Virus record (IMG/VR): IMGVR_UViG_3300005529_000006 | Coordinates: 1-64,000 of that record | Direction: 5' to 3' (one strand) | Length of the DNA stretch: 64,000 bases | Source of the DNA: a virus | Shown: one piece after another, positions 3,470 to 61,733 of the stretch | Layout of the letters: the number at the start of each line of letters is the position of its first letter | Position numbering within the stretch: the stretch's first letter is position 1 | Notes under the pieces: model-generated | The model's input: the letters and a program-made list of their open reading frames with translations, nothing else | Told to the model about the DNA's origin: nothing | Databases searched by the model: none | Made by a program: the position numbers and the translations under genes

Positions 3470-3488
3470 GAACCCCTTTTTAGGTAGG
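3470..3488 (+). repeat. 19-bp motif copy A (GAACCCCTTTTTAGGTAGG)
   Basis: Exact copy. On the minus strand it reads CCTACC-TAA-AAAGGGGTTC, with the TAA being the stop of 3480..3785; 13 nt upstream of the 3457 start. Confidence 0.8.
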
Positions 3489-3785
3489 ACACAGGCTTCG
3501 TCTTTGCTGCCACAAAGCGGCAGCAGAATAGAAGTGATAATCCTGCAATAAGGGGCCTATTCGCTTTCTCGGTTTTGAGCGACATCTACCTCTCTGATAC
3601 TCCCGTTTCATGTGACATGAGCGACAGACTGGCTCAACATCCAAGGGGTAGTCGTAACCAAGGTAGTGGTCGTAATCTCGCGCTCGACCGCCGCAGTCGG
3701 TGCAAGATAGCGATTTAGCTGGAGGGATCTTCCCTCGCTTTACGTAGTTCTTAATGCGCTCTCGCGCACGTAATTCCTTGGTCAT
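3480..3785 (-). CDS. zinc-finger protein (CTDCGG...CRSCH)
   Basis: ORF with Cys4 motif; ends ...CPT* inside the 19-bp motif. Confidence 0.45.
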   Translation of the reverse strand: MTKELRARERIKNYVKRGKIPPAKSLSCTDCGGRARDYDHYLGYDYPLDVEPVCRSCHMKREYQRGRCRSKPRKRIGPLLQDYHFYSAAALWQQRRSLCPT

Positions 3786-3947
3786 TCGACCTTTTCTGAA
3801 ACAGAGCGTAAGGGTATGGGGCTTGTTGGGATACGCCTACCACCGAGTCGTCAGGGGTCACGGACGTTGCTCGGATTTTCTATTCATCTCCCTCATCCTT
3901 GAATTGCGAACCCTTACACTCCATTTCAGAAAGGGCCGAAAGCCCTT

Positions 3948-4106
3948 TCACTTCTGTAACTCCCGAACGTTCTCACAGTATCCTTCATACATCAGGATGC
4001 TTTCTTCCTCTGCGAGCCGTCCGACATGAATCCCCCCACAATTTTCACATTCATACATTGTGAAGGGAGCTTTACTTAGTTTGTTGAGCTTATTCGCCAG
4101 GTTCAT
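3948..4106 (-). CDS. small zinc-ribbon protein (start taken at internal Met)
   Basis: C-terminal YECENCGGIHVGRLAEEESILMYEGYCEN; trimmed to avoid the overlap with 4130..4456. Confidence 0.3.
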   Translation of the reverse strand: MNLANKLNKLSKAPFTMYECENCGGIHVGRLAEEESILMYEGYCENVRELQK

Positions 4107-4129
4107 AGCGAACCACCAATCAGGAAGGT

Positions 4130-4456
4130 CTAACTTCTTCCTGCACTGGTTTCGCCTGAAGTCGTACTCTCTTTGCCTGAGGAGTTTGCTTCTCTGTCCC
4201 ATTGCTTTCCGATTTCTTGAATCTCTGCAATCGCGCCCCAAGGGATGGTAATGTCATCAATGGACGCACGGGAGTGCCCAATGGAAGTGGTGAGCACAAT
4301 GCCTTCTTTATTGGTCTGCACCACGTAACCGATGGACTGGATTTTCGCACAACCCCTCTGGAGCGTATCGTCGTATGTCCATCCAAACATGCTCTTGGAG
4401 TCATACCACCTGACTTGTACTGCCTTCCCAAAGGGATACTTTCTTGCCTTCGTCAT
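4130..4456 (-). CDS. hypothetical protein (108 aa)
   Basis: ORF preceded by AAGGAG-like RBS, a hairpin and a motif copy. Confidence 0.45.
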   Translation of the reverse strand: MTKARKYPFGKAVQVRWYDSKSMFGWTYDDTLQRGCAKIQSIGYVVQTNKEGIVLTTSIGHSRASIDDITIPWGAIAEIQEIGKQWDREANSSGKESTTSGETSAGRS

Positions 4457-4479
4457 CCGTCTCCTTATTAGATGAAACA

Positions 4480-4503
4480 GGGGGAGGTTTTATTTCCTCC
4501 CCC
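4480..4503 (-). terminator. GC-rich hairpin (GGGGGAGG-N8-CCTCCCCC) between two minus-strand genes
   Basis: Perfect 8-bp stem read directly; a weak U-tract follows on the minus strand. Possible attenuator or terminator. Confidence 0.35.
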
Positions 4504-4521
4504 AAATATGAATTCTGCGCA

Positions 4522-4540
4522 CCTACCTAAAAAGGGGTTC
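4522..4540 (-). repeat. 19-bp motif copy B (reads CCTACCTAAAAAGGGGTTC on plus)
   Basis: Exact copy; overlaps the TGA stop of 4539..4862. Confidence 0.8.
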
Positions 4541-4862
4541 AGAAGCTATATTGTTCTTCGTACTTCACCTTGAACATGAACTCGAAAGGTTTAACGGGTT
4601 GTTTTTCGTCAAACTTGACGATGAAGTCATCTGCCTTCTTCGGGGCGGAGAGAAAATATGTAACTCCGTCTAAAGTAATGGAGTAGTACCCGCCTCCAGA
4701 TATGTCCACGTTTATTTGTTCGGACGGCTTCAAATTGAGGATTCGTCCACACGCCCGAGCAATAGGACAATAAGAGCCATTGCCAACTTTTCCCTTGTCA
4801 ATATCCTCTTGCGTCACAACCACCTTGAACTTCTTTGGTACCGTTCGTTTGATTTTTGCCAT
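4539..4862 (-). CDS. hypothetical protein (107 aa)
   Basis: ORF; first gene after the 450-bp non-coding gap. Confidence 0.5.
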   Translation of the reverse strand: MAKIKRTVPKKFKVVVTQEDIDKGKVGNGSYCPIARACGRILNLKPSEQINVDISGGGYYSITLDGVTYFLSAPKKADDFIVKFDEKQPVKPFEFMFKVKYEEQYSF

Positions 4863-4976
4863 ATTTTCATCCTTTCACCAGTTCTACTGCCTTTTTGTGT
4901 CCCTCTTCCGCTTCTGTTTCTGGCGGCATCCAAGATGTAATTCATGTTGCGTTTCCCTTTATTCAAAAATTGGTGG

Positions 4977-5082
4977 GGCAGGAGTGGCTCACTCGCAGAC
5001 TGAGTACAACTAGAGTATCCGGGCTTATGGCCATGCCGGACTCGCCCTCATTCGTCCCTATGAGCTAAACCCCACTCCTGCA
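4977..5082. other. non-coding element closed by a 10-bp inverted repeat (GCAGGAGTGG ... CCACTCCTGC); contains the palindrome ATGGCCAT
   Basis: Read directly from the sequence; lies in the 4863-5318 gap with no ORF. Possible structured RNA or ori element. Confidence 0.35.
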
Positions 5083-5094
5083 CCGGGAGCGACC

Positions 5095-5350
5095 CGGCGA
5101 CCCATGTGTGGGCACAACATCACCCAAGTGGTCGATTCTGTCTCTCTCACTACCCCCCTGAACACCTAATTCCAACTTCGAGTGGGCACATCTTTACCCA
5201 GGTGGTAGAATCTGTCACTCTCTCTTTCCCCCTTAACCCCTTTAGAATCCTATAAATAAATAAACACCCAAAAAGAGAGAGACATATCTAACCACTTGGG
5301 CGTAGTTGTGCCTAAATTTCAGGACTTACCACTTGGGCAACTTGTGCCCG
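5095..5350. repeat. repeat cluster: two ~60-bp direct repeats starting GTGGGCACA(A), then two inverted partial copies (ACCACTTGGGC..TTGTGCC)
   Basis: Repeats at about 5108-5165, 5182-5240, 5291-5312 and 5328-5350. The same GGGCACAA core recurs at 56759-56950. Confidence 0.6.
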
Positions 5351-5561
5351 AATCTTGGTAATACTGACAATGATTGTTCCCTTCCGCGTCCAGTCCACCT
5401 CTTTCATTGAACCCGAAGTGTTCACATTCCTCCGGGATGAACTGTTCTCCAGTAGCTTGCAACCACACTTCGTTCATGACCACACCTAGGTGATGCTCCG
5501 TCCAAGAGTGGCCGCAAACACATATGCCCGAACATTCCGGCCCACTGTATCTAGGATTCAC
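5319..5561 (-). CDS. Cys/His-rich small protein, candidate anti-sigma or zinc-binding partner of the sigma factor
   Basis: Its start overlaps the sigma gene end by 11 nt; motif CSGICVCGHSWTEHH. Confidence 0.45.
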   Translation of the reverse strand: MNPRYSGPECSGICVCGHSWTEHHLGVVMNEVWLQATGEQFIPEECEHFGFNERGGLDAEGNNHCQYYQDSGTSCPSGKS

Positions 5562-6078
5562 GTCCCCTCCTCATCTTTTCCGCAATATCAAACCACTTCT
5601 TACACGCCCCACCCACAGTGATCCCCAACCTCTCTCCGATCTCCTCATGCGTGAGCCCTTCCAATCTCATCCTCACCACCAACTTCTCCTCATCATCCAA
5701 GACCTCCATTGCCTGCTCCAACTCCGCCTTTGCAAGCATGGCTCGGCCTTGTCTTTCCTCATCTCCTAATGTCTCCTCCAACGTGTCCACGGATATCTCA
5801 GGGTGCGTGATCTTCTCCCTCAAAGAGAGATTGCACATTTGCGTCACAATCGCCTGGAACCACGTACTAAACAGGCTCTCTCCCCTGAACGTATGGGCCT
5901 TATCAATTGCCTTCCACACGGCATCGGCCACAATATCCGGCCTATACTCCCCCAACTTCAACCAACAAACCGCGAACGCATGTCTGCGGAGGAGAGGAAT
6001 CAGCAAGTCCAACGCCGCTCGTTTCTCCTCCTCAGTCTGCGCACTCTGCCATAACGCGAACGCCTCATTCTCCTTCAT
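5551..6078 (-). CDS. ECF-type sigma-70 family RNA polymerase sigma factor
   Basis: Region 2 (DAVWKAIDKAHTFRGESLFSTWFQAIVTQMCNLSLRE) and region 4 HTH (LEGLTHEEIGERLGITVGGACKKWFDIAEKMR); 175 aa. Confidence 0.75.
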   Translation of the reverse strand: MKENEAFALWQSAQTEEEKRAALDLLIPLLRRHAFAVCWLKLGEYRPDIVADAVWKAIDKAHTFRGESLFSTWFQAIVTQMCNLSLREKITHPEISVDTLEETLGDEERQGRAMLAKAELEQAMEVLDDEEKLVVRMRLEGLTHEEIGERLGITVGGACKKWFDIAEKMRRGRES

Positions 6079-6415
6079 CTAACGGACTGTTCCTGTCCTC
6101 TTTCGGCTCCGTAATCACGATCTCCGTCTGTTTGACTTCGACCTCTGGAGCGAATCCAGCAGGTTTCCCCACCTTCTTTGTACGGATGATCCAAGCAATA
6201 TCCTCCATTTCATATAGACCCGGAGTCCGTTTGTCATCGTAGCTAGTACACTGACTCACCGGCCATTCAACGAAGTAAGGTTGCCACTCAGAGAGCTGAC
6301 CACACCTCACCAACTCTTGACTTGGAGTGACCCCCTTAACAATCGTCGCTTTCCTGCAAGTCCGGCACAGGCTTTCTCCGTCTGGTGCCGTCCCTCCAAC
6401 TACTTTTATGCGCAA
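6065..6415 (-). CDS. hypothetical protein (116 aa)
   Basis: ORF overlapping the sigma gene start by 14 nt. Confidence 0.45.
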   Translation of the reverse strand: MRIKVVGGTAPDGESLCRTCRKATIVKGVTPSQELVRCGQLSEWQPYFVEWPVSQCTSYDDKRTPGLYEMEDIAWIIRTKKVGKPAGFAPEVEVKQTEIVITEPKEDRNSPLDEGE

Positions 6416-6424
6416 AGTTCCCTC

Positions 6425-6658
6425 CTATGCGACTCCTACCCCTTGATAGGCCATGCTCCCCACTGCCACCTGTACCACCTCCTGCCCACAAGTCATACAC
6501 CTGACTGTAAGCACTCCAGTAGAGCTATACGCGACATCCAGCCCCGTACCGGGATGACACTTACTCGTAAGCAGCATCTCTTCATGCTTTCCACCACAGT
6601 GCGTACAGCCTTTGTCCAGCGACCCGTCCAAATCTTCACGAAACTTTATTTTTGCCAT
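6425..6658 (-). CDS. zinc-ribbon protein (CTHCGG...CMTCGQ)
   Basis: ORF with two CxxC pairs. Confidence 0.45.
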   Translation of the reverse strand: MAKIKFREDLDGSLDKGCTHCGGKHEEMLLTSKCHPGTGLDVAYSSTGVLTVRCMTCGQEVVQVAVGSMAYQGVGVA

Positions 6659-6721
6659 GTCTTATCCTTTCCCTGAGGAATCCAATCAAAATTGCTAGGC
6701 CCAAAATAATGAGCCCAATCT

Positions 6722-8149
6722 TCAAAGCACTCCTATGCCAAGCTTGGCGCACAACATATCAAGATCATGGCAATGTATGAACTGCTTGTTCTTCAGTGCT
6801 CCCTTGAAGAGTTCATCCGTCGCCTTCCGGAAAGAGTCATCTCCTGTCCATCCAGTATCCGTTACAAAGTACCTGGGGGCAGGCTGTTTCAATAACCACT
6901 GAAGCGCAGGGAAATCAATATAGTTCTCCCCATACCTGAAGGGTAGTTTTCCTCCGCCTTGATGCTTATAACGTCTGCCTTTCTCGGAGTAGATAGCCAA
7001 GGTGCCGTTGTACTGGATACAAGGGTCCCCCTTGCTATCCTTAACAGCCTTCCCATTCTGCCCCGAGTAATACGCCACCGTACCCAAGGGGATCTTCTCC
7101 GCCACAGCCTGGAGCTGTCCATCAGGAATACTCATACTCCCCGACGCATCAATCAAAACCGTCCCGCCATTCAGATGTTTCGCTCTTCGCAAAAACATCC
7201 TTGGCGGAGCAGGACTAATCGCAAGCGCCAACTTCTTCGCCCGAATCTTCATGCCTGCCATGACCAGCTTCTCGCTTGGCCCCTTGAAGGTGGCTTCACT
7301 GGTGGCCTTCTGCGCCATGTGCTCGATCTTCATGCGCGGGTAACCATCGGGCTTGGACATGATGTCTTTAATCGAACCGCCCGACAGATAGTCCGTGGCG
7401 TCCCCCAGAGAAAGGAAGTTGCTTTTCTCCTCTTCCCTTTTCTTGCCCCCTCCACGTCCCCATCCCCGCGTGGTCATCTTCATCAGCTCTCTGGGGCTTT
7501 GCATCTTGGCCCCAGTGAAGAACTTCTCGATGATTCTCCGAGCCGCCGCCTTGTTGTCTTTCTTCAGGTAGTCCAAAGCAGAATCAATTGCATCCCGCGC
7601 CAATTGCCCGTTCCCAAATAGCGGCATATCTGGGTCATAGAAGTGCCCTAAATCTGTACACTTCTGAAACAACTTATCCGCCAATTCTGGATGAGGAACA
7701 TCCCCTCCCTGCATCATGGCCCTGGCTCTCAAGGCCACAAGAAATGCAGCATCCTTCATGCCCAAAGGCATATACCTGATCGACCGCAAATCCAAGTAAG
7801 CCATGGTCAGCTCGTCCCGCCTGACCGAGCCCCTGGTCTGTGCGCACTTCACATGCAAATACGCATCTTCCACAGCCTGACTCAGGAAACTCTGATCGAC
7901 AGAAGCCTCCCCTGAATAAAGCGCATGAAGAGATTCATGAAGTCGAATTGTTCTGCCCACTGCATCTTCAAAGGTGGGGAGGATGGCCTCTTTCTTTTCC
8001 GGACTATATCCCCCCATAACATTGTTCAGCGGGTCGGCCTGTTTGACCTTGACCTTCGCCCCATCCTCCTTAAGCCTGTCCTTGAAGAGTTCCAACACCT
8101 CATCGACGTTGGACTTCAGGTACTCCGCACCGAAAACCTCTTCACTCAT
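6722..8149 (-). CDS. VWA-domain protein (CobT-like partner of the MoxR ATPase)
   Basis: MIDAS motif VLIDASGSMS in the C-terminal half; 475 aa; coupled by an ATGA overlap to the upstream Cys-rich ORF. Confidence 0.65.
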   Translation of the reverse strand: MSEEVFGAEYLKSNVDEVLELFKDRLKEDGAKVKVKQADPLNNVMGGYSPEKKEAILPTFEDAVGRTIRLHESLHALYSGEASVDQSFLSQAVEDAYLHVKCAQTRGSVRRDELTMAYLDLRSIRYMPLGMKDAAFLVALRARAMMQGGDVPHPELADKLFQKCTDLGHFYDPDMPLFGNGQLARDAIDSALDYLKKDNKAAARRIIEKFFTGAKMQSPRELMKMTTRGWGRGGGKKREEEKSNFLSLGDATDYLSGGSIKDIMSKPDGYPRMKIEHMAQKATSEATFKGPSEKLVMAGMKIRAKKLALAISPAPPRMFLRRAKHLNGGTVLIDASGSMSIPDGQLQAVAEKIPLGTVAYYSGQNGKAVKDSKGDPCIQYNGTLAIYSEKGRRYKHQGGGKLPFRYGENYIDFPALQWLLKQPAPRYFVTDTGWTGDDSFRKATDELFKGALKNKQFIHCHDLDMLCAKLGIGVL

Positions 8150-8727
8150 GACTTCCTCCGTTTGCAGTTGCCATCTTCGTCGAAATGATCTGTTAGATCG
8201 GCGTTAAGCCACCGGTCGCCTTTGCGCCAAAAGGCTCCGGAGCAGTAGCCGCAGTTAGTAGGCCAATAGCCCTTCTTCACCAGCGCCCCCGCAGGAATAT
8301 AACAATCGGGTTCGCCTTCGCTTGGTGCCCAATTATGGTGTTCCCCCCAAGACTTCCCGCAGTTCGCACAAGGCTCCTTCGAGTTCCTGTCATCAAACGT
8401 TGCCCCACAGACCATACATCCCATCCCATCACATACACATGGTTTGTAAATGACTATGGGCTCGAAAGAACAGCCGACCCCTCCTTTTGTTGTATGCCTA
8501 CCTGCATGTTTCCCACACTTCTTACAACGCGCACTGTATGGATAACCGTAGCTGCCAACAGTGAGAGGATCGCCGGAGGGATACTCTTTCCTGTATCCCT
8601 CCGTATCCAGCACAACCACTTCCCCCTCACTTGTTGTCCAGGTCTCAGCTACGTCCCCTAAAAACCGGGGTGAGTCAAATACCCCTTGCCTCCAGGACAC
8701 TTCATGGCCTCTGAACTCCCCGCCCAA
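8146..8727 (-). CDS. Cys-rich protein with repeated CxxCG..W.EHH zinc-binding units
   Basis: CKKCGKHAGRH, CANCGKSWGEHHNW, CGYCSGAFWRKG; sits between the AAA and VWA genes. Confidence 0.45.
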   Translation of the reverse strand: MGGEFRGHEVSWRQGVFDSPRFLGDVAETWTTSEGEVVVLDTEGYRKEYPSGDPLTVGSYGYPYSARCKKCGKHAGRHTTKGGVGCSFEPIVIYKPCVCDGMGCMVCGATFDDRNSKEPCANCGKSWGEHHNWAPSEGEPDCYIPAGALVKKGYWPTNCGYCSGAFWRKGDRWLNADLTDHFDEDGNCKRRKS

Positions 8728-9707
8728 CTATGGTCGTTGGCAGTGAGGCCACAGTTTCTACATTTCACACTTGAGTAATCATTGGGCAGATACCCTTGCT
8801 TCGAGCCCCCATCCTTTCCATGTGGCCCATTCCTATGCGGACAAGTCTGCCCAGGGCCAAACTCCGGATGAGCAAGGTGCGCTCCCTGTTGTTCCCCACA
8901 GTAATAACAGGGGCTGCTCGTATCAGGAATCTTTCCCTTATATCTCGCAGCCGTGGTCAGTACCGACAGAATCTCTTTCCCCGTCGTTCCAAACACACTC
9001 TCCGCGATCTGTGTCTCGCACAGAATCTCCGCCTGCTTGATCTTGGCGAAAGCCCGCATCCGGCGCAGCGTGGGTTTAGTAGAAAACTGCCACGGAGCAG
9101 GAGCCACGTTCTTGAAATGGTTCTTAACCGCCGCAGCTTGCGCCTCATCCAACCCGGTCAGCGCATCGGGATGAGGGTCTTTGGCAATCAAAACCGCCTC
9201 AAACCGATCAATGATGGCTTCCGGCAGACTGGCCAAGTTCGCATTAGTAGTGGCAATCACCACATACCCCTGCTTCGCCTTGACCATCTCTCCGGTGGGG
9301 AGCATAATCTGCGGAGCGTCATCCAGGAACGCATACATCAAAGACGCGATCTCACTTGGATGGTGGTCGATCTCGTCAATGAGCAGAGCCTTCCCTTCCC
9401 GGAGGGCTCTCGTTCCTGGGCCATCAACCCAAACGGTTTCCCCTTCCCGGAGCTGATACATCCCCACAATGTCCTCCACTCCCGTGCCTTCCGTCATGGT
9501 CAGACGGTAATCACTGCGAGTGACCTCTACTGCGGTGCGGCTTTTGCCCGTTCCCGGAGGGCCACAAAGCAAAATCCGGTTGCTCCCGCTATCCACCAGT
9601 GCGGGAAGGGCCTGGTACCATGCCACACTACGTGCAAACTTCGTCGCTTCGCTCATCTTCAGTAGCTCCTTCGATCTCTTCTTTTTCGTTCTCAATGACG
9701 TAGCCAT
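8658..9707 (-). CDS. MoxR/CobS-like AAA+ ATPase (AAA_5) with a Cys/His-rich C-terminal tail
   Basis: Walker A LLCGPPGTGKSRTA, Walker B LLIDEIDH, sensor ATTN, IDRF; C-terminal CYYCGEQQGAHLAH...CRNCGLTANDHSW. Confidence 0.7.
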   Translation of the reverse strand: MATSLRTKKKRSKELLKMSEATKFARSVAWYQALPALVDSGSNRILLCGPPGTGKSRTAVEVTRSDYRLTMTEGTGVEDIVGMYQLREGETVWVDGPGTRALREGKALLIDEIDHHPSEIASLMYAFLDDAPQIMLPTGEMVKAKQGYVVIATTNANLASLPEAIIDRFEAVLIAKDPHPDALTGLDEAQAAAVKNHFKNVAPAPWQFSTKPTLRRMRAFAKIKQAEILCETQIAESVFGTTGKEILSVLTTAARYKGKIPDTSSPCYYCGEQQGAHLAHPEFGPGQTCPHRNGPHGKDGGSKQGYLPNDYSSVKCRNCGLTANDHSWAGSSEAMKCPGGKGYLTHPGF

Positions 9708-9767
9708 GTTGCTCCTGATGTTTCTTACTCAGCCGCCTGAACACTTCCAGCATGTCTGCTGACTGCA

Positions 9768-10052
9768 TCAGTTGGCCTTTTCCTTGCGGAACTTCTCGTC
9801 CAGCTCCTTGAACTTAGCCGGATCACCTATGTAGCTCTGATCGACTTGTTGTAGAGTCTGTTTGGATTCCCCTGCAAAATGGGTTTCCTGACAAACCCCT
9901 CCAACCTCTTTTGTCCATTCCCGGAGGGTGTGTTCCAGTCTCTCGACCAGATTTTTCGCTATTCCTTTGGGAATCTGTGCTCCAGTCACGCTAACCGAAA
10001 AGGTGTCCGGCCCATCTGGTTCCCACCCCACTGCCAATACACTCCTGCGCAT
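9768..10052 (-). CDS. hypothetical protein (94 aa)
   Basis: ORF. Confidence 0.4.
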   Translation of the reverse strand: MRRSVLAVGWEPDGPDTFSVSVTGAQIPKGIAKNLVERLEHTLREWTKEVGGVCQETHFAGESKQTLQQVDQSYIGDPAKFKELDEKFRKEKAN

Positions 10053-10061
10053 AAGAACCCC

Positions 10062-10373
10062 CTAGTTGCTATCTTTTTTCATTGCTTCCATGATTTCCTG
10101 ATTCCCAAAAGTGGTGGACTTGATCTTCTGGAGGTTCTCCAGATTCTCTCCCCCATACACTTCTTCGGTACCAGTCGCGCCACAAATCTCACACCACTGG
10201 TTAAGGGCTGCATTGAATAACGCACTGAGAAGTGCAGCTTTCTTAACTCCAGGGATGTTGAGGGCTTTCACGTTCACGTTAAACAAGTCTCCCCCGTCGC
10301 CAACTGGAGTCTGTGTGATCTCCAGTTTGATTCCGGGATGGACATTGAACTTCTCGACCTCTTCACGTTTCAT
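10062..10373 (-). CDS. hypothetical protein (103 aa)
   Basis: ORF directly downstream of an intrinsic terminator. Confidence 0.4.
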   Translation of the reverse strand: MKREEVEKFNVHPGIKLEITQTPVGDGGDLFNVNVKALNIPGVKKAALLSALFNAALNQWCEICGATGTEEVYGGENLENLQKIKSTTFGNQEIMEAMKKDSN

Positions 10374-10404
10374 GCTTCCTTCGTTTACTTCTACCCAATA
10401 AAAA

Positions 10405-10436
10405 AGCCCACCCTTTCGGGTGGGCCTTGTCTGCCT
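10405..10436 (-). terminator. rho-independent terminator (minus orientation)
   Basis: Stem GCCCACCC/GGGTGGGC with loop, followed by UUUUUUAUU on the minus-strand transcript; about 38 nt after the SPFH gene stop. Confidence 0.55.
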
Positions 10437-10473
10437 GTATTTGAGCGAAACCGGAGAGCTTCGGGACTCCCCT

Positions 10474-11352: not shown

Positions 11353-11536
11353 GCTTCTTCTCCTTTTTCCAGACCCGACGCAAGATAGTGGGGACAACAA
11401 TACCCCACGAAACTAAAAACAACCCCGCTCCCAAGAACAACTGAGTGTCACTGGGAGCGTCCATCATAGAGAGAGCGATGGTTGTCACTCTCATCATGAG
11501 CAAGAACAACAAAGCCGTAAGTATCGCTTTCTTCAT
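11288..11536 (-). CDS. small membrane protein (NfeD-like partner candidate)
   Basis: Two TM helices; immediately upstream of the SPFH gene, with overlap. Confidence 0.4.
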   Translation of the reverse strand: MKKAILTALLFLLMMRVTTIALSMMDAPSDTQLFLGAGLFLVSWGIVVPTILRRVWKKEKKHEKESVGGSAPVNGRSGVHAD

Positions 11537-11920
11537 TCAGTTAGTCCATTTCCCCATAGGGACGGTTTCGACCTTAGGCTCTCCTACCTCTACCAACGCC
11601 CCATGAATGTGGAAATTGCAAGCCTGGGCTACCGCTGCCTTGAAAGAGCACGCTGCCCCATAGGGCAACATCCCGGAATCCACCAACATGGCAAACGCAT
11701 CTTCCATGGCATCACCCGCAGCAATTCGGTCATCGTTCAAGATGCCATCCCGCTTTAGTGATTGCACATGTTTCAGAGCTTCCTTGTCGTTCATCCGGCG
11801 CTCTTGCCAAGCCCGCAGAGTTGCTCCTTTAGGCTTCGGTGTCTTTTCCGAGCGTTTTCCAAACCGCCCGAGTAGTGTCGTCCACTTTCCCATATCTGTG
11901 CTCCTGTATGCACTCGCCAA
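11537..11920 (-). CDS. hypothetical protein (127 aa)
   Basis: ORF contiguous with the next gene. Confidence 0.4.
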   Translation of the reverse strand: MASAYRSTDMGKWTTLLGRFGKRSEKTPKPKGATLRAWQERRMNDKEALKHVQSLKRDGILNDDRIAAGDAMEDAFAMLVDSGMLPYGAACSFKAAVAQACNFHIHGALVEVGEPKVETVPMGKWTN

Positions 11921-12086: not shown

Positions 12087-12124
12087 CAGTCCTCCAACAC
12101 GTTGCTAGTAAATGAATACATGGC

Positions 12125-55310: not shown

Positions 55311-55358
55311 AAATAAGATCTGGTGTTTTCAGATCTAATAAGACGAATAACGCAAAGA

Positions 55359-55381
55359 GGGGTTCTCCGGAACCCCTTTTT
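55359..55381 (+). terminator. rho-independent terminator (GGGGTTC-tccg-GAACCCC + TTTTT)
   Basis: Its downstream arm and T-tract are the first 12 nt of motif copy H. Confidence 0.65.
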
Positions 55382-55388
55382 AGGTAGG
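55370..55388 (+). repeat. 19-bp motif copy H (GAACCCCTTTTTAGGTAGG; ATG of integrase 1 nt after)
   Basis: Exact copy. Confidence 0.8.
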
Positions 55389-55389: not shown

Positions 55390-56259
55390 ATGAATCTTCG
55401 ATTTTGGGCAGGCAAATATGAAGCCTCCCTCGCCACGACAGTACGCAGAGACACCCGCGAACGCTACGGCATAGCCCTCAACCACATCCTGGAATACCTT
55501 GGCCCCCTCCATCCCAAGGATGTCTTCAAGATCGACGCCAAGAACTACATGGCCCACCGGCTCTCTAAGGGCCTAGCTCCCAACACGGTTCGCCAGGAGA
55601 TCTTGGTAGGCTGTGCTTTCTACAACTGGCTCATCGAAAACGAAGTCGTAGAGTACGGCCACAATCCGTTCTCCCGTGTCAAGAAGCCTCGCGCCCCTGA
55701 ACCACTACGTCGGGCACTCTCTAAAGACACTCTCGCCAAACTGTGGGCTGCTGCGGAGAAGAAAAGTGATCTGGTGATGTTGTCTGTGGCATTGCTTACT
55801 CCCCTTAACGCCAAGACAATTGCCATGCTGCAAAAGAGCAACTTCGATTTCGAGCGCAAGCAACTGGTGTGCGAGAGGAGCAAGACAGGTGTGGCCCTGA
55901 TTCTTCCTGTGGCCGATGAACTCCTGGAGCTGGTAGCTTCTCTCCCCGAGGGTCCCCTCTTCCCCAAGGTAATCCTTGACCGCAGGCCCGGCTCTGTGCT
56001 CTCCCGCCGCTTTGCGGTCCTAGCAAAAAAAGCCCTGGGGTTTAACCCAGGGCTACATGCGCTGCGCCATACCTTTGCAACCGACGCACTTCAAAGCGGA
56101 GTTGACATCCGGACCGTTCAAGCACTACTCGGCCATAAGTCAATAATGACGACCGCTCGTTATCTTGCGCCAGCGGACACTGAATCGGTCAGAGGGTTCT
56201 TGGAGACTAGGTTGCTGAAGCTTCAATCACCTTTGTCTCCGCCTCCTGAATCCCCGTAG
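55390..56259 (+). CDS. tyrosine recombinase, Xer-like (289 aa)
   Basis: C-terminal catalytic HALRHTFATDAL...LLGHKSIMTTARYLA (R-H-R-Y). Confidence 0.75.
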   Translation: MNLRFWAGKYEASLATTVRRDTRERYGIALNHILEYLGPLHPKDVFKIDAKNYMAHRLSKGLAPNTVRQEILVGCAFYNWLIENEVVEYGHNPFSRVKKPRAPEPLRRALSKDTLAKLWAAAEKKSDLVMLSVALLTPLNAKTIAMLQKSNFDFERKQLVCERSKTGVALILPVADELLELVASLPEGPLFPKVILDRRPGSVLSRRFAVLAKKALGFNPGLHALRHTFATDALQSGVDIRTVQALLGHKSIMTTARYLAPADTESVRGFLETRLLKLQSPLSPPPESP

Positions 56260-56618: not shown

Positions 56619-56734
56619 TTCGGTCCTTTTGTTACCTTTGTTTTGTTTAAGCAGTCCGGGAGGGACTGTACAGTAGATACTGTACTTATTGCGCAGAAGC
56701 AAGTAAAATTATTGTACGTTACGAATTCAGAACA

Positions 56735-56755
56735 AGCCCCGAAAGGGGCTTTTTA
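56735..56755 (+). terminator. rho-independent terminator (AGCCCC-gaaa-GGGGCT + TTTTT)
   Basis: Read directly. Confidence 0.6.
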
Positions 56756-56758
56756 TTT

Positions 56759-56889: not shown

Positions 56890-58086
56890 CTATACACCTG
56901 CAACAACTTCTGCCTCAACCGTGGGCACAAGTGGGCACAAAATCGTGCCCATCTGATCCGCTACTTCCCGGTCTTTCTCCCGAATAGCGTGCGCATAAAC
57001 CCGAAGCGTGAGGCTTGGATCGGCGTGGCCGAGCCTGGTTGCCGCCGTTCGGATATCGACTCCTCGGGAAACAAGGAGAGTTGCGTTGGCGTGCCGGAAG
57101 GCATGAAGGCCCCCTGGCTCAATCCCGAGTCGTTCGAGGAGGGGTTGGAGCTTTTGGAATACGATGTCATGGCCATCAAGAGGGGTGCCGTTGCGGGTGC
57201 TAAACACGAATCGCAAAGGGTCTCCCCCTCCAGCACAATGACGTTCAAGGGCATCAGCCAGAGCTTTGGATACCGCGAGCGTTCGTAGTGCGCTCGTCGA
57301 TTTCGGGGTCTGTACTCGACCCTTCCATACACTCTGCCGCACTTGCACTGTATGGTGTCGGGTGTCAACATCACACACCCTGAGTCCAGTGATTTCACCT
57401 GCACGTAGTCCTGTTTCAGCAGCCAGCCAATAGATAGTCCTATATGGTTCTTCGGCTGCGGCGATTATTCTTTGGATCTCCTCCAGGGAGAAGCACCGTC
57501 TCTTGGGTGGCTTCTTCCTTGGGAGCACAATGCCATCACAGGCGTTGTGAGTTACAGTTCCCCAAGATTTGGCGGTCTTCCATATGAGTCTGAAGGTGCC
57601 GATGATATTCCTGACGGTCTTGGGATTTAAGGTGAGGCCCGCGATGAATCTTTGAAGATGCACGGGTGCAATATCCCCCATGTCCATCTCCCCAAAATAC
57701 GGAATAAGATACCTGTTTATGTGGTTCTTCTCCATGCTCTGAGTGGACAACTTGTGGGAGGGCATCACGGTGTCTCGCCAGTTGGTGGCAAATTCCCCAA
57801 AAGACACCTTGACCCTCGGACGATAATCCAGGGCATTTACTTCACCCAGGAGTCGGTCGAGGGCCCGTTGAGCTAAACGTTTAGTAGGGAGTTCCTGTAG
57901 AGTCCCCAATACCTTCGACTTGTGAACTCTCACAATCGCAGAAGTTGAGGCGCTTGCCACAGCTCCAGCAGAAGTCGTAGGTTCCCCATACGAAGGCTTG
58001 ACATCCTCCCTCCACCTGGCGACCCACACCTTCTTCTTGTTTCCCCTGAGAAACAACCTTCCTTTCTGATACCTTCTCCGAGCCAT
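56890..58086 (-). CDS. int: tyrosine integrase (phage type, about 398 aa from the MARRRYQKG start)
   Basis: N-terminal arm/SAM-like region, catalytic C-terminus ...LHAFRHANATLL...GHADPSLTLRVYAH. ORF as listed begins at 58143. Confidence 0.75.
   Translation of the reverse strand: MARRRYQKGRLFLRGNKKKVWVARWREDVKPSYGEPTTSAGAVASASTSAIVRVHKSKVLGTLQELPTKRLAQRALDRLLGEVNALDYRPRVKVSFGEFATNWRDTVMPSHKLSTQSMEKNHINRYLIPYFGEMDMGDIAPVHLQRFIAGLTLNPKTVRNIIGTFRLIWKTAKSWGTVTHNACDGIVLPRKKPPKRRCFSLEEIQRIIAAAEEPYRTIYWLAAETGLRAGEITGLRVCDVDTRHHTVQVRQSVWKGRVQTPKSTSALRTLAVSKALADALERHCAGGGDPLRFVFSTRNGTPLDGHDIVFQKLQPLLERLGIEPGGLHAFRHANATLLVSRGVDIRTAATRLGHADPSLTLRVYAHAIREKDREVADQMGTILCPLVPTVEAEVVAGV
56921..56950. repeat. 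GTGGGCACAA x2 plus an inverted GTGCCC half-site, overlapping the last codons of the integrase
   Basis: Read directly; candidate arm-type/attP-associated sites. Confidence 0.5.
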
Positions 58087-58468
58087 TTTCTCCTGGCCCG
58101 TTGATTCCGGTACCATCATACAAGACACCTGTTGCTCTGTCATCTAGCTCCGGATGTGATACGCTATACTCCAATAGACTAAGGAGGCCCCAACACGCAT
58201 GAGAAAGATGTGGCAATCCAGACTCTTCATCCAGTTCTTCTCCGGACCACCACTTCCAGAGGTGCCGCATGACTGCCGCGAATATGCGACTCCATTTCAA
58301 ACCCTTGCGCCAGTTATTGTCCTCATACTTCCCTGCGCCGAACGTGTACACTCGGCCTAGTTCCCACAACGGATAGGCTGGTATGAGGTCCAGCCTATTC
58401 TTCCCTCCATCGTCCTTCGCGCCTTCCTTAAGCTTACTTGTTTGCTGCAATTTCTCTTGCGAACTCAT
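57881..58468 (-). CDS. dATP/dGTP diphosphohydrolase-domain protein
   Basis: DDGGKNRLDLIP...FGAGKYEDNNWRKGLKWSRIFAAVMRHLWKWWSGEELDEESGLPHLSHA, the hallmark of the phage dGTP-diphosphohydrolase N-domain (recollection). Start trimmed to Met-42; about 200 nt overlap with the integrase start is unresolved. Confidence 0.6.
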   Translation of the reverse strand: MSSQEKLQQTSKLKEGAKDDGGKNRLDLIPAYPLWELGRVYTFGAGKYEDNNWRKGLKWSRIFAAVMRHLWKWWSGEELDEESGLPHLSHACWGLLSLLEYSVSHPELDDRATGVLYDGTGINGPGENGSEKVSERKVVSQGKQEEGVGRQVEGGCQAFVWGTYDFCWSCGKRLNFCDCESSQVEGIGDSTGTPY

Positions 58469-59021
58469 CAAAACTCTTAACCCTTTTAATGTCCTTGTGG
58501 GTGTAGCCCTGATTGTGTGAATGATTCCGAAGAAAGACTCGGCAAGCAGGGTTGTATCTCTTGACTGCCTCGCAATTGTGGGGACGGTCATCGAGAAAGT
58601 AATCCAGTTCCAACGCCAAACCTAAAGGCCCCTTGTTGGGCGTGACCAAGACAGTCGGATTAGGAAGCCCGAACTTTTCCTGTAACCACTTGAAGGTTTG
58701 CAGCTCTACAGGTTCCCCTTTGGTGGGGAACCGGGATGTAATGAAGTAGGTTCGATTGAGCTGAATGAACCACTTGTCCAGCAGAGTCACACCACCCTCT
58801 TTGTTGAGGGTCGTGTGGAAGTTATTGATATTCCGGATGCGCCTCCAGACAGCAGCGATCTCTGCCTCGCTGAGTCCGTAGTTGCTCCAGTTCCAATCGA
58901 CAGGCATGGTGCCTTCGACCGGGAGGCCAAAGAGATCCCGCGCCTCTCTGGTAAATGTGGAGATGAAATCTGCTAGGACATCATCCACATCCACCCCGAC
59001 GCGGGGGCGAGTGTCAGTCAT
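58434..59021 (-). CDS. 5'(3')-deoxyribonucleotidase (NT5C, HAD superfamily)
   Basis: N-terminal VGVDVDDVLADF HAD motif I; 195 aa. Confidence 0.7.
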   Translation of the reverse strand: MTDTRPRVGVDVDDVLADFISTFTREARDLFGLPVEGTMPVDWNWSNYGLSEAEIAAVWRRIRNINNFHTTLNKEGGVTLLDKWFIQLNRTYFITSRFPTKGEPVELQTFKWLQEKFGLPNPTVLVTPNKGPLGLALELDYFLDDRPHNCEAVKRYNPACRVFLRNHSHNQGYTHKDIKRVKSFDEFAREIAANK

Positions 59022-59211
59022 ATATTCCTAGTCGGAATAGACAGTAATCCACCACTGCCCAGTACACAAAAGAAGGAACAACCCCTCCTTCGGATACTGC
59101 AATGACCCAATAGATTGCCGCTACTACACCTATGAGTACATAGACGATTTTTTCAAGTAAATTCATGGGGCGGCTTTCGTTTCCCTTCCCCACTTCCCAC
59201 AATCCAGACAA
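59014..59211 (-). CDS. small membrane protein
   Basis: IVYVLIGVVAAIYWVIAV. Confidence 0.4.
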   Translation of the reverse strand: MSGLWEVGKGNESRPMNLLEKIVYVLIGVVAAIYWVIAVSEGGVVPSFVYWAVVDYCLFRLGIYD

Positions 59212-59873
59212 TGGAACCTGCGGTAGCGGTTATGCAACGTCACCACATGCCCTCGATACTCCACTCCCCCTCCACAAGTGGAGCACTTGGCCCGGTCTTT
59301 AACTACCCTGGGATGAGCTGTGTCATAAGGCTGGAGCCTCAGATAAACTTGCTCCAACGTCTGCACGTCTTGGGCACAATACTTCGCCATGTCATGAATG
59401 GCTTCCTTGTCTCCCGCCAGAGCCCTCAGCCACCAGCCCGGCCACTCACTGGGACAATCCTTGTGGTACTTCTTTTCATGGCACCCGAGAATGTCCGCAA
59501 GATGAACCAACCTGTTGCTGGAGAACTTGAAGGTCTTGTAGGCGATATACCAGGTATCGCGCTGCTTGGCTGGCGGAGGAGGCGTCAGTCCGTTGATAAG
59601 GCAACGACCAGCCAGGAATGGCTTGTCAAATCTGTCGCCATAATGCGCAACCAGAACGTCTGCCTCCTCCATAATTTGGAGGGCTGCTTCAAGCAGCCCT
59701 TTGTCACTAATCCCTTTCTTGGGATTGAACCAATCGGGAAATTCATCCACTGTGAGGACGTGGGCTTTCTTTTCCCCGAGCCACTTGTAACCGAAGCACA
59801 CAATAGTGCTCAGGTCTGCATTGAGAGAATTGACACCTGCGGTTTCCAGGTCCCAAATGAGTATTTTCTGCAT
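59163..59873 (-). CDS. stand-alone DEDDy 3'-5' exonuclease (PolB-exo/RNase H-like) with C-terminal zinc finger
   Basis: Exo I ILIWDLETAG, Exo II HYGDRFDKPFL, Exo III YCAQDVQTLEQVY; CSTCGG...CLDCG. Confidence 0.65.
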   Translation of the reverse strand: MQKILIWDLETAGVNSLNADLSTIVCFGYKWLGEKKAHVLTVDEFPDWFNPKKGISDKGLLEAALQIMEEADVLVAHYGDRFDKPFLAGRCLINGLTPPPPAKQRDTWYIAYKTFKFSSNRLVHLADILGCHEKKYHKDCPSEWPGWWLRALAGDKEAIHDMAKYCAQDVQTLEQVYLRLQPYDTAHPRVVKDRAKCSTCGGGVEYRGHVVTLHNRYRRFHCLDCGKWGRETKAAP

Positions 59874-59961
59874 TAACGAGGTCTAAAGTGGACAATCAAA
59901 TACAGCCCAAGGAGCTGTATGCACACCGATACCACTGCACAGATTGTCCGGATTCTTTCCA

Positions 59962-60219
59962 CTACTGAGTCAGTTCCACTTTTCCCGAGAACATGGTGTT
60001 CATTGCCTCCTCTGCCATTTGAAAGAGCAGGTGAACCGTGTCGGGTGCGTCGAAGGGGCCTGAGGCTAAGACGCTGGCTTGATAGGCTTTGTTGTCACCT
60101 TTGAGGGTGACGGTATAGGTAATCTCGTATGACCCGCCCTTGCCAGACTTCACATCCACAATCAGGCGGTCAGCATCGAACGCGGTGACACTACTTGCTT
60201 GTACGTTTGTATTTTCCAT
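59962..60219 (-). CDS. hypothetical protein (85 aa)
   Basis: ORF. Confidence 0.4.
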   Translation of the reverse strand: MENTNVQASSVTAFDADRLIVDVKSGKGGSYEITYTVTLKGDNKAYQASVLASGPFDAPDTVHLLFQMAEEAMNTMFSGKVELTQ

Positions 60220-61405
60220 CTATAACTGCTACGTCCTTTGACTGCAATAAACTGAACAACAACTTGTCCGTATCTTGACTGGAGCAGTAGTTCCTCATCG
60301 CCCGCTTGATTGCGGTATCTGAGAGCATGTCGTCCCCAATCACTTCCAACACCTTGGCTAACATCTTCCCCTGTGGGCTCATCGGCACCACAACCTCCCC
60401 GAGTTTCTTTTGAGAGTACTCATAGAGCGCGATTGCGTTCTTCACATCCTCAGCCGTGATGTGATAACGATTACAGGAGAGGGCGAGCAGGAGCGACAGA
60501 CGGAGGACATGTGCCCCCGCTCGCGCAGCGAAGGGAGATAGCACCCCCAGATCGGGCATGAACATCTGATACCAAAGCCCGTAGGTGTCACTCGCTTCGT
60601 AGTCTAGGAAGTCCACTCTCCCTGCCGAAACATCGGTCAGGCCCTTAAAGGCGTCCATCAAGTCCGCTCGCTCCCGGAGGAGTTGCGCCCTCTGGGTCTT
60701 ACTCATCACCCTGGAGGGGTCAGGAACTCTTTGGCGCTTGTGATCTTCCTTCACAATAAAGAATCGTGGCAGGAATCCGCCTGCGGCAGCGGTGGACGGC
60801 AACTGATCTTGGAGCCACTCTTTGGTACTGCCGCCTATGATGGTCACGGAAGGTTCTTCTACAGTCTGGATACTTCCGGCCTTGGTGCGGATACTGGTAG
60901 GAGCGTAATCAAGAAGGTCAGTAATATAAGGGATCATCCCTTCCTGATAACGCTCCTTGGAGAAGAAGTTGGCCAACTCAGAAGCCACCACAATGGCATG
61001 TCCCCCACATGCAATCAGATCTTCGTGGAGCTTCTCTTTGGTTGCCTTCCCTGAAATAACTTCGGGCTTGCGGTGGGAGGGAAGTTCACCGATAAGCTGC
61101 AACCCAATGTCCCGGATTGCGGTGGACTTCCCAATCCCACTAGGCCCAATCAGCAGCAAGTTCATCATCGGAAATACACGATGCACGTCCTGGTCGAAGT
61201 AGCACTTCCTGCCAATGGCTGCTCCGAACATGGACATTGCGCTGAATAGCAAGTAGCTGGTGGGGGGTTCCGCCAGGGGATAGCAAGCTAGATACTTTCT
61301 AAACCAGCTATCTTTTGGCAGATTTTTTAGCACTGAGTCTTTGCTGTTGGGCTCGACATACCTCATCGAGCCACTTGCCCCACCCGATTTCTCTGATACG
61401 ATCAC
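60191..61405 (-). CDS. P-loop NTPase, putative SF3/D5-like replicative helicase
   Basis: Walker A LLLIGPSGIGKST and Walker B-like HAIVVASE; in the replication module. Family assignment is tentative. Confidence 0.45.
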   Translation of the reverse strand: MIVSEKSGGASGSMRYVEPNSKDSVLKNLPKDSWFRKYLACYPLAEPPTSYLLFSAMSMFGAAIGRKCYFDQDVHRVFPMMNLLLIGPSGIGKSTAIRDIGLQLIGELPSHRKPEVISGKATKEKLHEDLIACGGHAIVVASELANFFSKERYQEGMIPYITDLLDYAPTSIRTKAGSIQTVEEPSVTIIGGSTKEWLQDQLPSTAAAGGFLPRFFIVKEDHKRQRVPDPSRVMSKTQRAQLLRERADLMDAFKGLTDVSAGRVDFLDYEASDTYGLWYQMFMPDLGVLSPFAARAGAHVLRLSLLLALSCNRYHITAEDVKNAIALYEYSQKKLGEVVVPMSPQGKMLAKVLEVIGDDMLSDTAIKRAMRNYCSSQDTDKLLFSLLQSKDVAVIDGKYKRTSK

Positions 61406-61413
61406 GGTCAGAC

Positions 61414-61674
61414 TTATTCAATCCCAGGAGTTGCAGCTCGTCTGGATACTTTGTCAAGCAGGTCCTCCGCCTCTTTGAAGTTCCGGAGCCTTTTGGCTTC
61501 CGGCGTTTCGAGTTCTTCGACATAAAAATCATCCAGTACATGCTGGATTCCACTCTTGCCCATGACCGGACGACGCACACGGGCCATCAGCCGGGTGTCA
61601 ACGTTCATAATCTCCAAGATGAACACGGGTTCATCGGTGGTCTTAACATGTGCGACTTCGTTCACTTTAATCAT
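61414..61674 (-). CDS. hypothetical protein (86 aa; start at internal Met of ORF 61414..61896)
   Basis: Preceded by motif copy I and a 7-codon mini-ORF. Confidence 0.4.
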   Translation of the reverse strand: MIKVNEVAHVKTTDEPVFILEIMNVDTRLMARVRRPVMGKSGIQHVLDDFYVEELETPEAKRLRNFKEAEDLLDKVSRRAATPGIE

Positions 61675-61714
61675 CGAGATATTAGATGGATCACGCTGCG
61701 ACTTTATTTCCCAT

Positions 61715-61733
61715 GAACCCCTTTTTAGGTAGG
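61715..61733 (+). repeat. 19-bp motif copy I (GAACCCCTTTTTAGGTAGG; on the gene strand CCTACCTAAAAAGGGGTTC-ATG)
   Basis: Exact copy; sits 2 nt after the stop of 61736..62137. Confidence 0.8.

Follow-up and report, generated by a model that had tools for sequence, protein, structure and literature searches.

Why should a tailed phage carry the same 19-bp sequence at nine dispersed places, on both strands and mostly between genes? The question arises from positions 1 to 64,000 of the IMG/VR virus record IMGVR_UViG_3300005529_000006 (the window, i.e. the whole stretch of 64,000 nucleotides (nt) that was analysed), in which an inspection of the letters alone (the sequence-only reading) had listed nine copies of the motif, far from chance, and had left its role open. 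Our search of the window with GAACCCCTTTTTAGGTAGG, allowing up to three mismatches, returned the same nine copies and no further ones; six are exact, three carry one transition each, and they divide into five on the plus strand and four on the minus strand. None of 100 dinucleotide-preserving shuffles of the window contained a match (expected count, 0), and chance is excluded as the origin of the motif. The positions, numbered here as copies 1 to 9, agreed with the earlier ones to within 1 nt, the one shift being in copy 6, which occupies 43258-43276 rather than 43259-43277. The window is part of a circular genome of 67,136 bp, which was rebuilt from a 67,277-bp ENA contig and two Logan contigs (SRR5581483) that are 100% identical to it; a search of this full replicon, as had been suggested, added no copy, the next best match having five mismatches, with no intermediates. 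A T stands directly 5' of the motif in seven of the nine copies, and their other flanks are unrelated, which gives the motif sharp boundaries. Below, F form denotes GAACCCC...GGTAGG, and RC form denotes its reverse complement.

The exact 19-mer had no match in IMG/VR, and it was absent from ∼0.99 Mb of related phage DNA, where a search with up to four mismatches found 2 matches against 2.5 expected. Two single matches to the exact motif in GTDB representative genomes were judged to be chance, and at least 115 matches in JGI metagenomes were nearly all unrelated, with none resembling the window. Among the latter kind, an AT-rich repeat of ∼110 nt (...TATAGGTAACCCCTTTTTRGGTAGGTTAGGTCGGGTTTT...) in scores of contigs of the JAABUH, JAABUI, and JAABUP assemblies (L007-L121) shares an 18-mer with the motif by coincidence, as does a terminator-like hairpin of Flavobacteria, AACCCCTTTTTAGGTAGGGGAAAAA. 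A literature search with the motif's sequence strings retrieved unrelated primers only. Two relatives gave matches with five mismatches: one, in L125, lies in coding sequence and is probably chance, and the other, in L124, was initially discounted as chance-level, although L124 has its own variant of the motif in three to four copies.

To see the motif in its family, loci of related phages were taken centred on PolA and on the capsid gene, and 11 of these relatives carry their own variants of one architecture, namely a CTAACCCC(G)/GAACCCC block, an A/T spacer of 4-6 nt, and a GCGAGG/AGGTAGG block. The variants read (i) (T)CCTCGC-N4-6-ACGGGGTTAG in L133/L189, L190, L192-L196, L198, and L199; (ii) CCACTACCC-N6-7-GGGT(T/C) in L132/L234; and (iii) CTTGCC-N4-6-GGGGT in L124; in the same notation, the window has CCTACC-TAAAAA-GGGGTTC. 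The element is thus made of two G/C-rich blocks with weak dyad symmetry (CCCCG/CGAGG) and an A/T spacer between them, and our catalogue holds 41 copies from 12 genomes, at three to nine copies per phage. Its blocks are constant within a genome and different between genomes, a pattern that suggests selection acting on the blocks and a reader changing with them; in the relatives, the spacer varies in sequence, and in length by ∼1 nt, among the copies of one genome. Four close relatives (L122, L125, L126, and L200) have no copies or doubtful traces only. The sequence-only reading had proposed that absence from close relatives would reduce the motif to an oligonucleotide bias of this one genome. 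Relatives do lack the exact 19-mer, but they have diverged versions of the element at the same places, so that the motif is not such a bias. Judged from these comparisons, the motif is one phage's version of a clade-wide, selected cis-element of ∼20 bp.

The most constant of these places is the start of the capsid module. A gene for a protein of 116 amino acids (aa) stands ahead of the scaffold and capsid genes, and in 11 genomes its ATG is preceded, at 11-19 nt, by an RC-form copy; the gene's own Shine-Dalgarno sequence lies between the copy and the ATG. Its counterpart in the window is copy 5 (29564-29582, minus strand, exact), which is in RC form along the late transcript and whose TAA, as the sequence-only reading had noted, is the stop codon of the upstream open reading frame (ORF), 29378-29572 (+). 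Genomes in which the portal stop abuts or overlaps the start of the 116-aa gene have no copy there. In nine pairwise DNA comparisons among five genomes of the clade, homology ends after the portal gene, across a small hypervariable slot, and resumes 1-2 nt from the 5' edge of the motif (13-14 nt in the comparison of L194 with L195); between the window and its relatives, the DNA is too diverged for an informative breakpoint analysis. Copy 5 forms the right edge of the corresponding block in the window, a 1.7-kb stretch of five small genes (27983-29572) that precedes the 116-aa/scaffold/capsid module. By this comparison of gene content, portal and 116-aa gene enclose a hypervariable slot for accessory genes, and the motif does lie at the edges of variable gene slots, in agreement with the earlier suggestion that it might mark cassette boundaries. 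The five small ORFs of 27983-29572 have no family match; the block is absent from L122, L124, and L005, and relatives hold other small genes in the slot.

Two further places recur. Copy 9 (61715-61733, plus strand, exact; RC form along the minus-strand transcript) lies between a 109-aa gene, downstream of PolA, and the 86-aa and primase genes, and L133 has an RC-form copy after PolA in the same place and orientation. Copy 7 (52373-52391, minus strand, exact, RC form) is the single intragenic copy of the window, lying in frame as PLPKKGF (aa 694) within the 1672-aa gene, as the sequence-only reading had stated. It falls in a variable, non-conserved, low-complexity linker of this polyvalent virion protein, and intragenic copies are present in the giant-gene linker of the window, L133, and L124. 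A second giant-gene copy in L133 lies in a conserved domain, where it encodes SSLKTGLP against RSLKALP in the window. The 1672-aa protein itself (50292-55310, +) has a conserved C-terminal domain (aa 890-1540) that is common to 1900-2600-aa RadC or 2',5'-RNA-ligase multidomain proteins, at 27-32% identity, which makes it a polyvalent injected protein.

Copies have also been gained independently. At the junction between the genes for the 398-aa adaptor and the 1334-aa protein, stop and start codons overlap as TAATG or abut in relatives, whereas the window has a clean 18-nt insertion in F form, namely copy 6 (43258-43276, plus strand, with one mismatch, G1 to A). The adaptor stop codon at 43257-59 was correctly recognized earlier, but it overlaps the motif rather than preceding it, and the ATG of the 1334-aa gene follows at 43278. 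In L189, the same junction has an RC-form copy of L189's own variant, and in seven other relatives it has no copy; on this sequence evidence, the junction is a case of independent gains in opposite orientations. The histidine-phosphatase gene shows another route. In L190, L194, and L195, an F copy overlies its start codon and an RC copy stands 15 codons short of its stop; the protein alignment has zero indels. The second giant-gene copy of L133 likewise replaces coding sequence at unchanged length. Such overwriting agrees better with a site selected at its place than with insertion, and some copies, at least, look selected into place. In the window, the corresponding His_Phos_1 gene (32992-33597, +) stands in the structural/lysis block and adjoins a cell-wall hydrolase gene; the gene is present in the motif-bearing relatives checked (eight) except L124, and L122, L124, and L126 have none. 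We considered this enzyme as the motif's cognate partner because inverted pairs bracket its gene in several genomes, and rejected it, as it is an ordinary His_Phos_1 protein.

Do such gains make the element a mobile one? A copy-and-paste mini-element (selfish, or spread by gene conversion), or a recombination linker that marks or mediates the exchange of accessory ("moron") genes in the manner of PeSL cassettes or REP/REPIN sequences, would account for the clean 18-nt insertion of copy 6 where stop and start overlap in relatives, and for the separate copy at that junction in another lineage. It would also suit copy 5 as the bound of a 1.7-kb insertion, the resumption of homology at the motif edge beside the hypervariable slot in nine pairwise comparisons, the arrangement [F]-extra gene-[RC] in L196 against a lone RC copy in L193, and the patchy presence among close relatives (L122, L125, L126, and L200 being without the motif). 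However, no target-site duplications were seen at the copies, and the flanks of pair partners are no more alike than those of non-partners (p=0.27), which together indicate that the copies are not simply transposon ends. The bracketed "cargo" is, moreover, often conserved backbone (the histidine phosphatase, the adaptor, and part of the giant gene), several copies replace sequence at unchanged length, and no transposase, HUH, or RAYT-like gene was found. Spacers that differ among the copies of one genome argue that these are old and maintained rather than recently copied, and since the left edge of the variable slot is the portal stop, ordinary homologous recombination in the flanking genes would suffice for the exchange. 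We regard mobility as unlikely, though it is one of the two main rivals of the reading favoured below.

The motif is asymmetric and, as the sequence-only reading had found, its orientation is independent of the direction of transcription: RC form along the local transcript accounts for ∼60% of the copies, neither form dominates, and the window has RC form at 3470, 29564, 52373, and 61715 and F form at 4522, 43258, and 55370. Along the genomes, however, neighbouring copies are oppositely oriented in 23 of 28 pairs (p=4.6e-4), and in 19 of 24 (p=0.003) when L190 and L195 are left out, whose copies are syntenic with those of L194. This alternation suggests that the element acts in inverted pairs. 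In ten cases, inverted pairs enclose short segments of heterogeneous content, be it a conserved enzyme gene, part of a giant gene, 110-340 nt of non-coding DNA, or an extra gene; L196, for example, has an extra paralogous gene between an F and an RC copy, and L193 has a single RC copy without the gene.

Copies 1 to 4 of the window form two such pairs. Copy 1 (3470-3488, plus strand, exact), with RC form CCTACCTAAAAAGGGGTTC on the minus-strand transcript, precedes the ATG of gene 3152-3457 by 12 nt, and its TAA is, as claimed earlier, the stop codon of the HNH-like ORF 3480-3785 (-). Copy 2 (4522-4540, minus strand, exact) has the F form when read along the minus-strand transcript, and the TGA that ends gene 4539-4862 falls partly within it. 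Together they form an inverted pair around a 1.03-kb segment with a 108-aa gene, a 52-aa ORF, and the HNH remnant. Copies 3 (19477-19495, plus strand, with one mismatch, A13 to G) and 4 (19837-19855, minus strand, with one mismatch, G1 to A) are inverted partners in a non-coding region of ∼1 kb that separates the leftward early genes from the rightward late genes; they face inward, with 21-nt arms that are 95% complementary and 335 nt apart, and copy 4 lies 70 nt upstream of a small-terminase-like gene.

Concerted turnover of the blocks, junctions that are kept, and gains in either orientation point to a co-evolving trans-acting reader and to a function that does not depend on gene direction. 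We therefore favour, tentatively and with well short of even confidence, a cis-element read by a co-evolving DNA-binding factor and acting mostly as inverted pairs at module boundaries. A sequence-specific factor, most likely phage-encoded, would read the element on the DNA irrespective of the direction of neighbouring genes, and the pairs would mark or insulate gene modules, e.g. by protein-bridged looping or by blocking RNA polymerase; the G-rich block, where it faces a start codon, would double as the ribosome-binding site of that gene. A protein reader, action on DNA rather than RNA, and a boundary or insulating role are the parts that we infer, and the RNA alternatives found no support in hairpin z-scores, in a sense-strand bias of duplexes, or in Rfam.

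Several points weigh on the other side. Pfam scans of ∼75 ORFs revealed no helix-turn-helix protein or other reader of that kind, the ECF-like sigma factor and two tyrosine recombinases aside. Spacer variation of 1-2 nt suits a rigid double-stranded DNA-binding protein poorly. The early/late non-coding region holds an 18-nt sequence, TTGAAAACAAAGGACTTA, in three copies (18999-19015 and 19035-19052 on the plus strand, and 19585-19602 inverted), which is the better repressor-operator candidate and makes a role of the motif as immunity operator improbable. RNA pairing between copies, finally, would also account for the alternating orientation and for the overlap with ribosome-binding sites.

That last alternative has two forms: long-range pairing of F and RC copies in mRNA over 16-25 bp, which would occlude ribosome-binding sites or direct processing, as in the RNase III stalks of rRNA or the long-range coupling of MS2, or a boxB-like RC hairpin for a phage RNA-binding or antitermination protein. 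The alternation of orientation agrees with it, the GC-rich blocks and free spacer would suit two helices with an internal loop, and predicted F:RC duplexes reach -32 to -49 kcal/mol, with shuffled controls at -10 to -18. Most co-directional F copies include, or directly adjoin, the Shine-Dalgarno sequence or the start codon of the gene that follows, six of the nine window copies are in RC form if promoters are placed, tentatively, between copies 3 and 4, and the conserved capsid-module copy is in RC form in 11 of 11 genomes. Against this, local hairpins are no stabler than those of shuffled sequence (minimum free energy z-scores of -0.04 to -1.05 over ten variants); a possible mini-stem shifts register between variants, with no compensatory changes; and Rfam gave no match at the gathering threshold. 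A weak hairpin of boxB size is compatible with these data. The pairs show no G-U versus A-C asymmetry on the sense strand (four are better in sense and six are worse), the spacers of partners do not co-vary, and in L234 the 10 kb downstream of the conserved RC copy contain no F partner for it. Pairing is also hard to reconcile with the two orientations found at one junction in different lineages, and translation would disrupt pairing over kilobases. An RNA-level role is, in our judgment, unlikely, on a par with mobility, and is the other main rival.

Copy 8 (55370-55388, plus strand, exact, F form) bears on two further explanations, termination and recombination. An inverted, partial tenth copy, AAAGAGGGGTTC (55354-55365), extends this feature to 55354-55388 and supplies the other arm of a hairpin, GGGGTTC-TCCG-GAACCCC followed by T5 (55359-55381), that is canonical and terminator-like. 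The sequence-only reading was right about this hairpin and its T-tract, but a general terminator role does not follow, since one copy only is involved: the others have no partner arm, the clade variants contain no T-run, and the strong terminator-like hairpin at 4480-4503, 18 nt beyond copy 2, is a separate element. Copy 8 ends 1 nt short of the ATG of the 289-aa Xer-like recombinase gene (55390-56259).

Could the copies be core sites of this small tyrosine recombinase, like the shufflon sfx sites or invertons, with inverted pairs as invertible segments? Their size and architecture resemble a simple core site (two imperfect arms around an A/T centre of 6-8 bp): the arms CCCCG/CGAGG match at four of five positions, and the A/T-rich centre, of 6-8 nt, is equal in length in eight of ten inverted pairs, its sequences differing by 1-3 nt where recombining partners would share an identical centre. 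Discrete segments lie between inverted copies in ten cases, and the start codon of the recombinase stands next to copy 8. Enzyme and motif, however, dissociate both ways. L133/L189 (∼29.5 kb of a 66-kb genome examined) keeps at least six conserved copies and has, at the syntenic position, a 124-aa N-terminal remnant of the recombinase (L133 5030-5404); L272 and L273 encode a full-length homologue but show no motif over 21 kb; and L132 has the gene without an adjacent copy. Recombination among nine dispersed sites, some of them in essential genes, would be destructive, spacer length is unequal within some pairs, and the inverted state was not seen among relatives. We rejected the link to the Xer-like enzyme on account of this two-way dissociation (L133/L189 versus L272 and L273) and consider recombination sites quite improbable. 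The closest homologue of the 289-aa recombinase, at 61% identity, lies in a tRNA-linked island of the bacterial genome GCA_037025685.1, whose neighbouring genes encode PEP-CTERM, PEGA, and Ser/Thr-kinase domains and give a lead to the host lineage. Upstream of it stand a terminator and a ribosome-binding site only, which are too generic to count.

Does the motif instead serve the start codons near it? Eight of the nine copies are intergenic, the ninth being copy 7, and their stop-to-start placement, which the sequence-only reading had rightly described, follows from the compactness of the genome. An ATG does lie 0-3 nt from five copies (29583, 43278, 55390, 19499, and, on the minus strand, 61714), but substantial genes open only at 43278 and 55390, the ORFs at the other three (29583, 19499, and 61714) running to 38, about 12, and 7 codons, and tight gene packing largely explains the association. 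F copies 6 and 8 end 1 nt before real start codons, and AGGTAGG is the only possible Shine-Dalgarno sequence there. The element still differs from start-associated sequences (SAS; those of Cluster K and Cluster EF), which keep one orientation and stand at the ribosome-binding site immediately before the start codon. Only co-directional F copies (those at 43258 and 55370, and several in relatives) have such a position, whereas an RC-form copy either precedes a Shine-Dalgarno sequence distinct from it or is intragenic.

A phage-specific promoter, used by the ECF-like sigma factor encoded at 5551-6078 or by an unrecognised phage RNA polymerase, would explain a contiguous, conserved, genome-specific sequence of ∼20 bp, which is typical of phage-polymerase promoters, and, by T7 logic, the F form would comprise GAACCCC for binding, TTTTTA for melting, and GG as the start. 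The genome does encode a phage sigma factor, the position between portal and scaffold/capsid matches that of T7 phi9/phi10, and an asymmetric 18-bp intergenic motif of Cluster EC is perhaps a promoter (PMC7302621). Yet three or four of the nine copies would be antisense whichever strand is taken as sense, and the conserved capsid-module copy would point backwards if F is read as the promoter; if RC is read instead, the sequence is G-rich before the presumed start, and 11-19 nt only are left to the ATG. Some copies are intragenic. Sigma-70 scans predicted no promoter at the copies, the 19 positions form one conserved, uninterrupted run, with nothing conserved at the ECF -35/-10 spacing (16-17 nt downstream of GAAC), and the Bacteroidota TAnnTTTG is absent on both strands, so that the earlier statement that none of these three models fits is borne out by scans and by conservation. 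Compared with T7-like promoters, contiguity and genome specificity are shared, but orientation is mixed and spacer length variable. Pfam, PHROGs, and PDB sequence searches detected no RNA polymerase gene. We also considered the giant proteins as hidden RNA polymerases and rejected them, as they have no Pfam or PDB match to one and the C-terminal domain is that common to multidomain polyvalent proteins. A promoter role is, on balance, improbable.

The sequence-only reading had also named a nicking site, and the rival in question would be a phage nickase making localized single-strand interruptions of the virion DNA as in T5, phiKMV-like phages, and tf. Dispersed, genome-specific, two-part sites recall the phiKMV consensus CGAC-N5-CCTACTCCGG (PMC3517423), the sites recur every ∼9-15 kb, and an HNH-like ORF ends within copy 1. 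The nick-site motifs described in T5, phiKMV-like phages, and tf, though, lie on a single strand only (PMC3517423), against an alternating split of 5 (+) to 4 (-) here, which counts against that option, and the HNH ORF looks degenerate and is not conserved. We rate nickase sites as highly improbable. ORF 3480-3785 (-) retains an HNH zinc-finger-like core (CxxC...DH...CxxCH; phrog_2340, 6e-7) and has an odd C-terminal tail that ends in the motif; it is missing from the gene calls of public assemblies and is probably a decaying homing-endonuclease gene. Integron attC sites are likewise a poor match, at 57-141 bp of imperfect palindrome against an element of ∼20-24 bp; some clade copies contain GTTAGGC/GCCTAAC, and the window has GTTCA (attC core, GTTRRRY).

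The genome in which these copies lie is organized in opposing blocks, with genes running leftward in 1-19300 and 56890-64000 and rightward in 19900-56259. Its structural genes encode a large terminase, an SU10/P22-type portal, an N4-gp56-type major capsid protein, an SU10-type adaptor, and very large virion proteins of 1661, 1001, 1334, and 1672 aa; the replication module encodes UDG-PolA, a primase/helicase, Sak4, and an exonuclease fused to endonuclease VII. The last of these is a 370-aa protein (1694-2806, -) in which a PD-(D/E)XK exonuclease is joined to a C-terminal endonuclease VII domain. DNA searches found no close cultured or GenBank phage, and the best capsid match is at most 30% identical. 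The genes of two tyrosine recombinases converge, namely that of the 289-aa Xer-like enzyme (55390-56259, +), which has no arm-binding domain, and that of a 417-aa integrase (56890-58143, -). A strong terminator-like hairpin (56031-56054, -) lies antisense within the former, and a second hairpin (56734-56751, +) lies in the 630-bp gap between the two genes, a possible attP location.

Other repeats are present in the early/late region. One pair of the TTGAAAACAAAGGACTTA copies is 100% complementary, and the three may form a set of operators or iterons separate from the 19-bp motif. At 19727-19750 lies the perfect 9-bp inverted repeat GTGTCACGA-N6-TCGTGACAC, and a G-rich repeat of ∼33 nt (GGGGGGTGG...TTTT...GGGG.CCCCAA) occurs twice, at ∼19188-19221 and at 19269-19301; the repeats of 19188-19750 may belong to an origin or packaging region. 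Farther right, a C-rich intergenic region of 181 nt (24379-24559) includes CCCTAACCCCCGG, a sequence similar to the left block of the clade-1 variant, and L193 and L196 have true copies at the syntenic position. Nucleotide-metabolism genes occupy 58087-59021 and 62031-64000, running past the window; they comprise a domain related to the N-terminus of dGTP diphosphohydrolase (PF18909, from the contig gene table), an NT5C 5'-nucleotidase, and the PolA-UDG fusion, a set that hints at modified or non-canonical DNA bases.

Short genome-specific repeats recur among phages, and almost none has an assigned function. The comparative handles available here make the reader of this one identifiable in principle, via co-variation across complete genomes, and a few experiments would distinguish looping or roadblock action, RNA pairing, and mobility. 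A broader proposal, which we put forward as decidedly unlikely, is that throughout this uncultured podophage clade inverted pairs of a fast co-evolving 20-bp element partition the genome by physically coupling distant sites. Coupling might run through (i) protein-bridged DNA loops that insulate modules or (ii) mRNA duplexes over kilobases that control access to ribosome-binding sites or guide RNase III cleavage, in the manner of rRNA processing stalks but on protein-coding operons, and new copies might be installed via short-patch templated copying. If true, such partitioning would be a new mode of operon punctuation in double-stranded DNA phages; pairing or insulation would then reveal by what means phages divide their compact operons and take up accessory genes while the adjacent genes go undisturbed.

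How does the element compare with known systems? In Cluster A mycobacteriophages, stoperators bound by the L5 repressor gp71 are 13-bp sites, present at 20-35 per genome and in one orientation relative to transcription. In L5, the stoperator sequence is also that of the early-promoter operator. Like them, the present sites are short, asymmetric, specific to a genome or lineage, and dispersed genome-wide, with a consensus that shifts between relatives, and most of them occupy the very small gaps between the stop of one gene and the start of the next in a temperate phage. Unlike them, the element has nine copies of ∼20 bp with a variable spacer and mixed, alternating orientation, a repressor was not found among the scanned ORFs, and the separate 18-nt triple repeat of the regulatory region is the likelier operator. 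The distribution of stoperators is mentioned in PMC4351075. In placement, the element resembles the repeats of Cluster O mycobacteriophages, of Microbacterium phages of Cluster EC, and of Cluster EG, which are likewise conserved, genome-wide, short, and situated in small intergenic regions (PMC4351075, PMC7302621); about a third of the 17-bp repeats of Cluster O are intragenic, and their positions are conserved among relatives (PMC4351075, PMC7302621). The Cluster O repeats and the 18-bp inverted repeats of Cluster EG are, however, true dyads, whereas the present element is asymmetric and two-part; the 18-bp motif of Cluster EC keeps one orientation, 21-30 bp upstream of starts, where the present element alternates; and the sequence of the present element turns over between close relatives. 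We would see it as a functional analogue of the stoperators and of the Cluster O, EC, and EG repeats of actinobacteriophages.

In T4-type phages, PeSL cassettes reportedly combine an early promoter with a stem-loop in direct repeats (Arbiol, Comeau and Krisch 2010). Both they and the present element are repeated short, regulatory-looking sequences around small accessory ORFs in hyperplastic regions with a suggested modular shuffling, but the present element has neither promoter nor stable stem-loop, occurs in inverted pairs, and often brackets conserved genes. REP/REPIN sequences are also extragenic, found in both orientations and in inverted doublets, and divided into genome-specific classes that co-evolve with their reader; they differ in being palindromic hairpins that number hundreds per chromosome and come with a RAYT gene, as against a weak dyad in three to nine copies, some of them intragenic, in genomes where no RAYT/HUH gene was found. 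The sfx sites of the R64 shufflon are 19-bp asymmetric inverted repeats that separate segments, with a tyrosine recombinase gene beside one of them. Their segments, though, are clustered at the 3' end of one gene and provide alternative C-termini, whereas the present sites are spread over 58 kb of essential genes, and presence of the motif is not tied to that of the recombinase. Genome-specific intergenic phage repeats of this size are already known (PMC4351075, PMC7302621), and what is new here is the two-block design with a free spacer, the fast lineage turnover at fixed anchors, the gains in both orientations, the overwriting in place, and the alternation along the genome.

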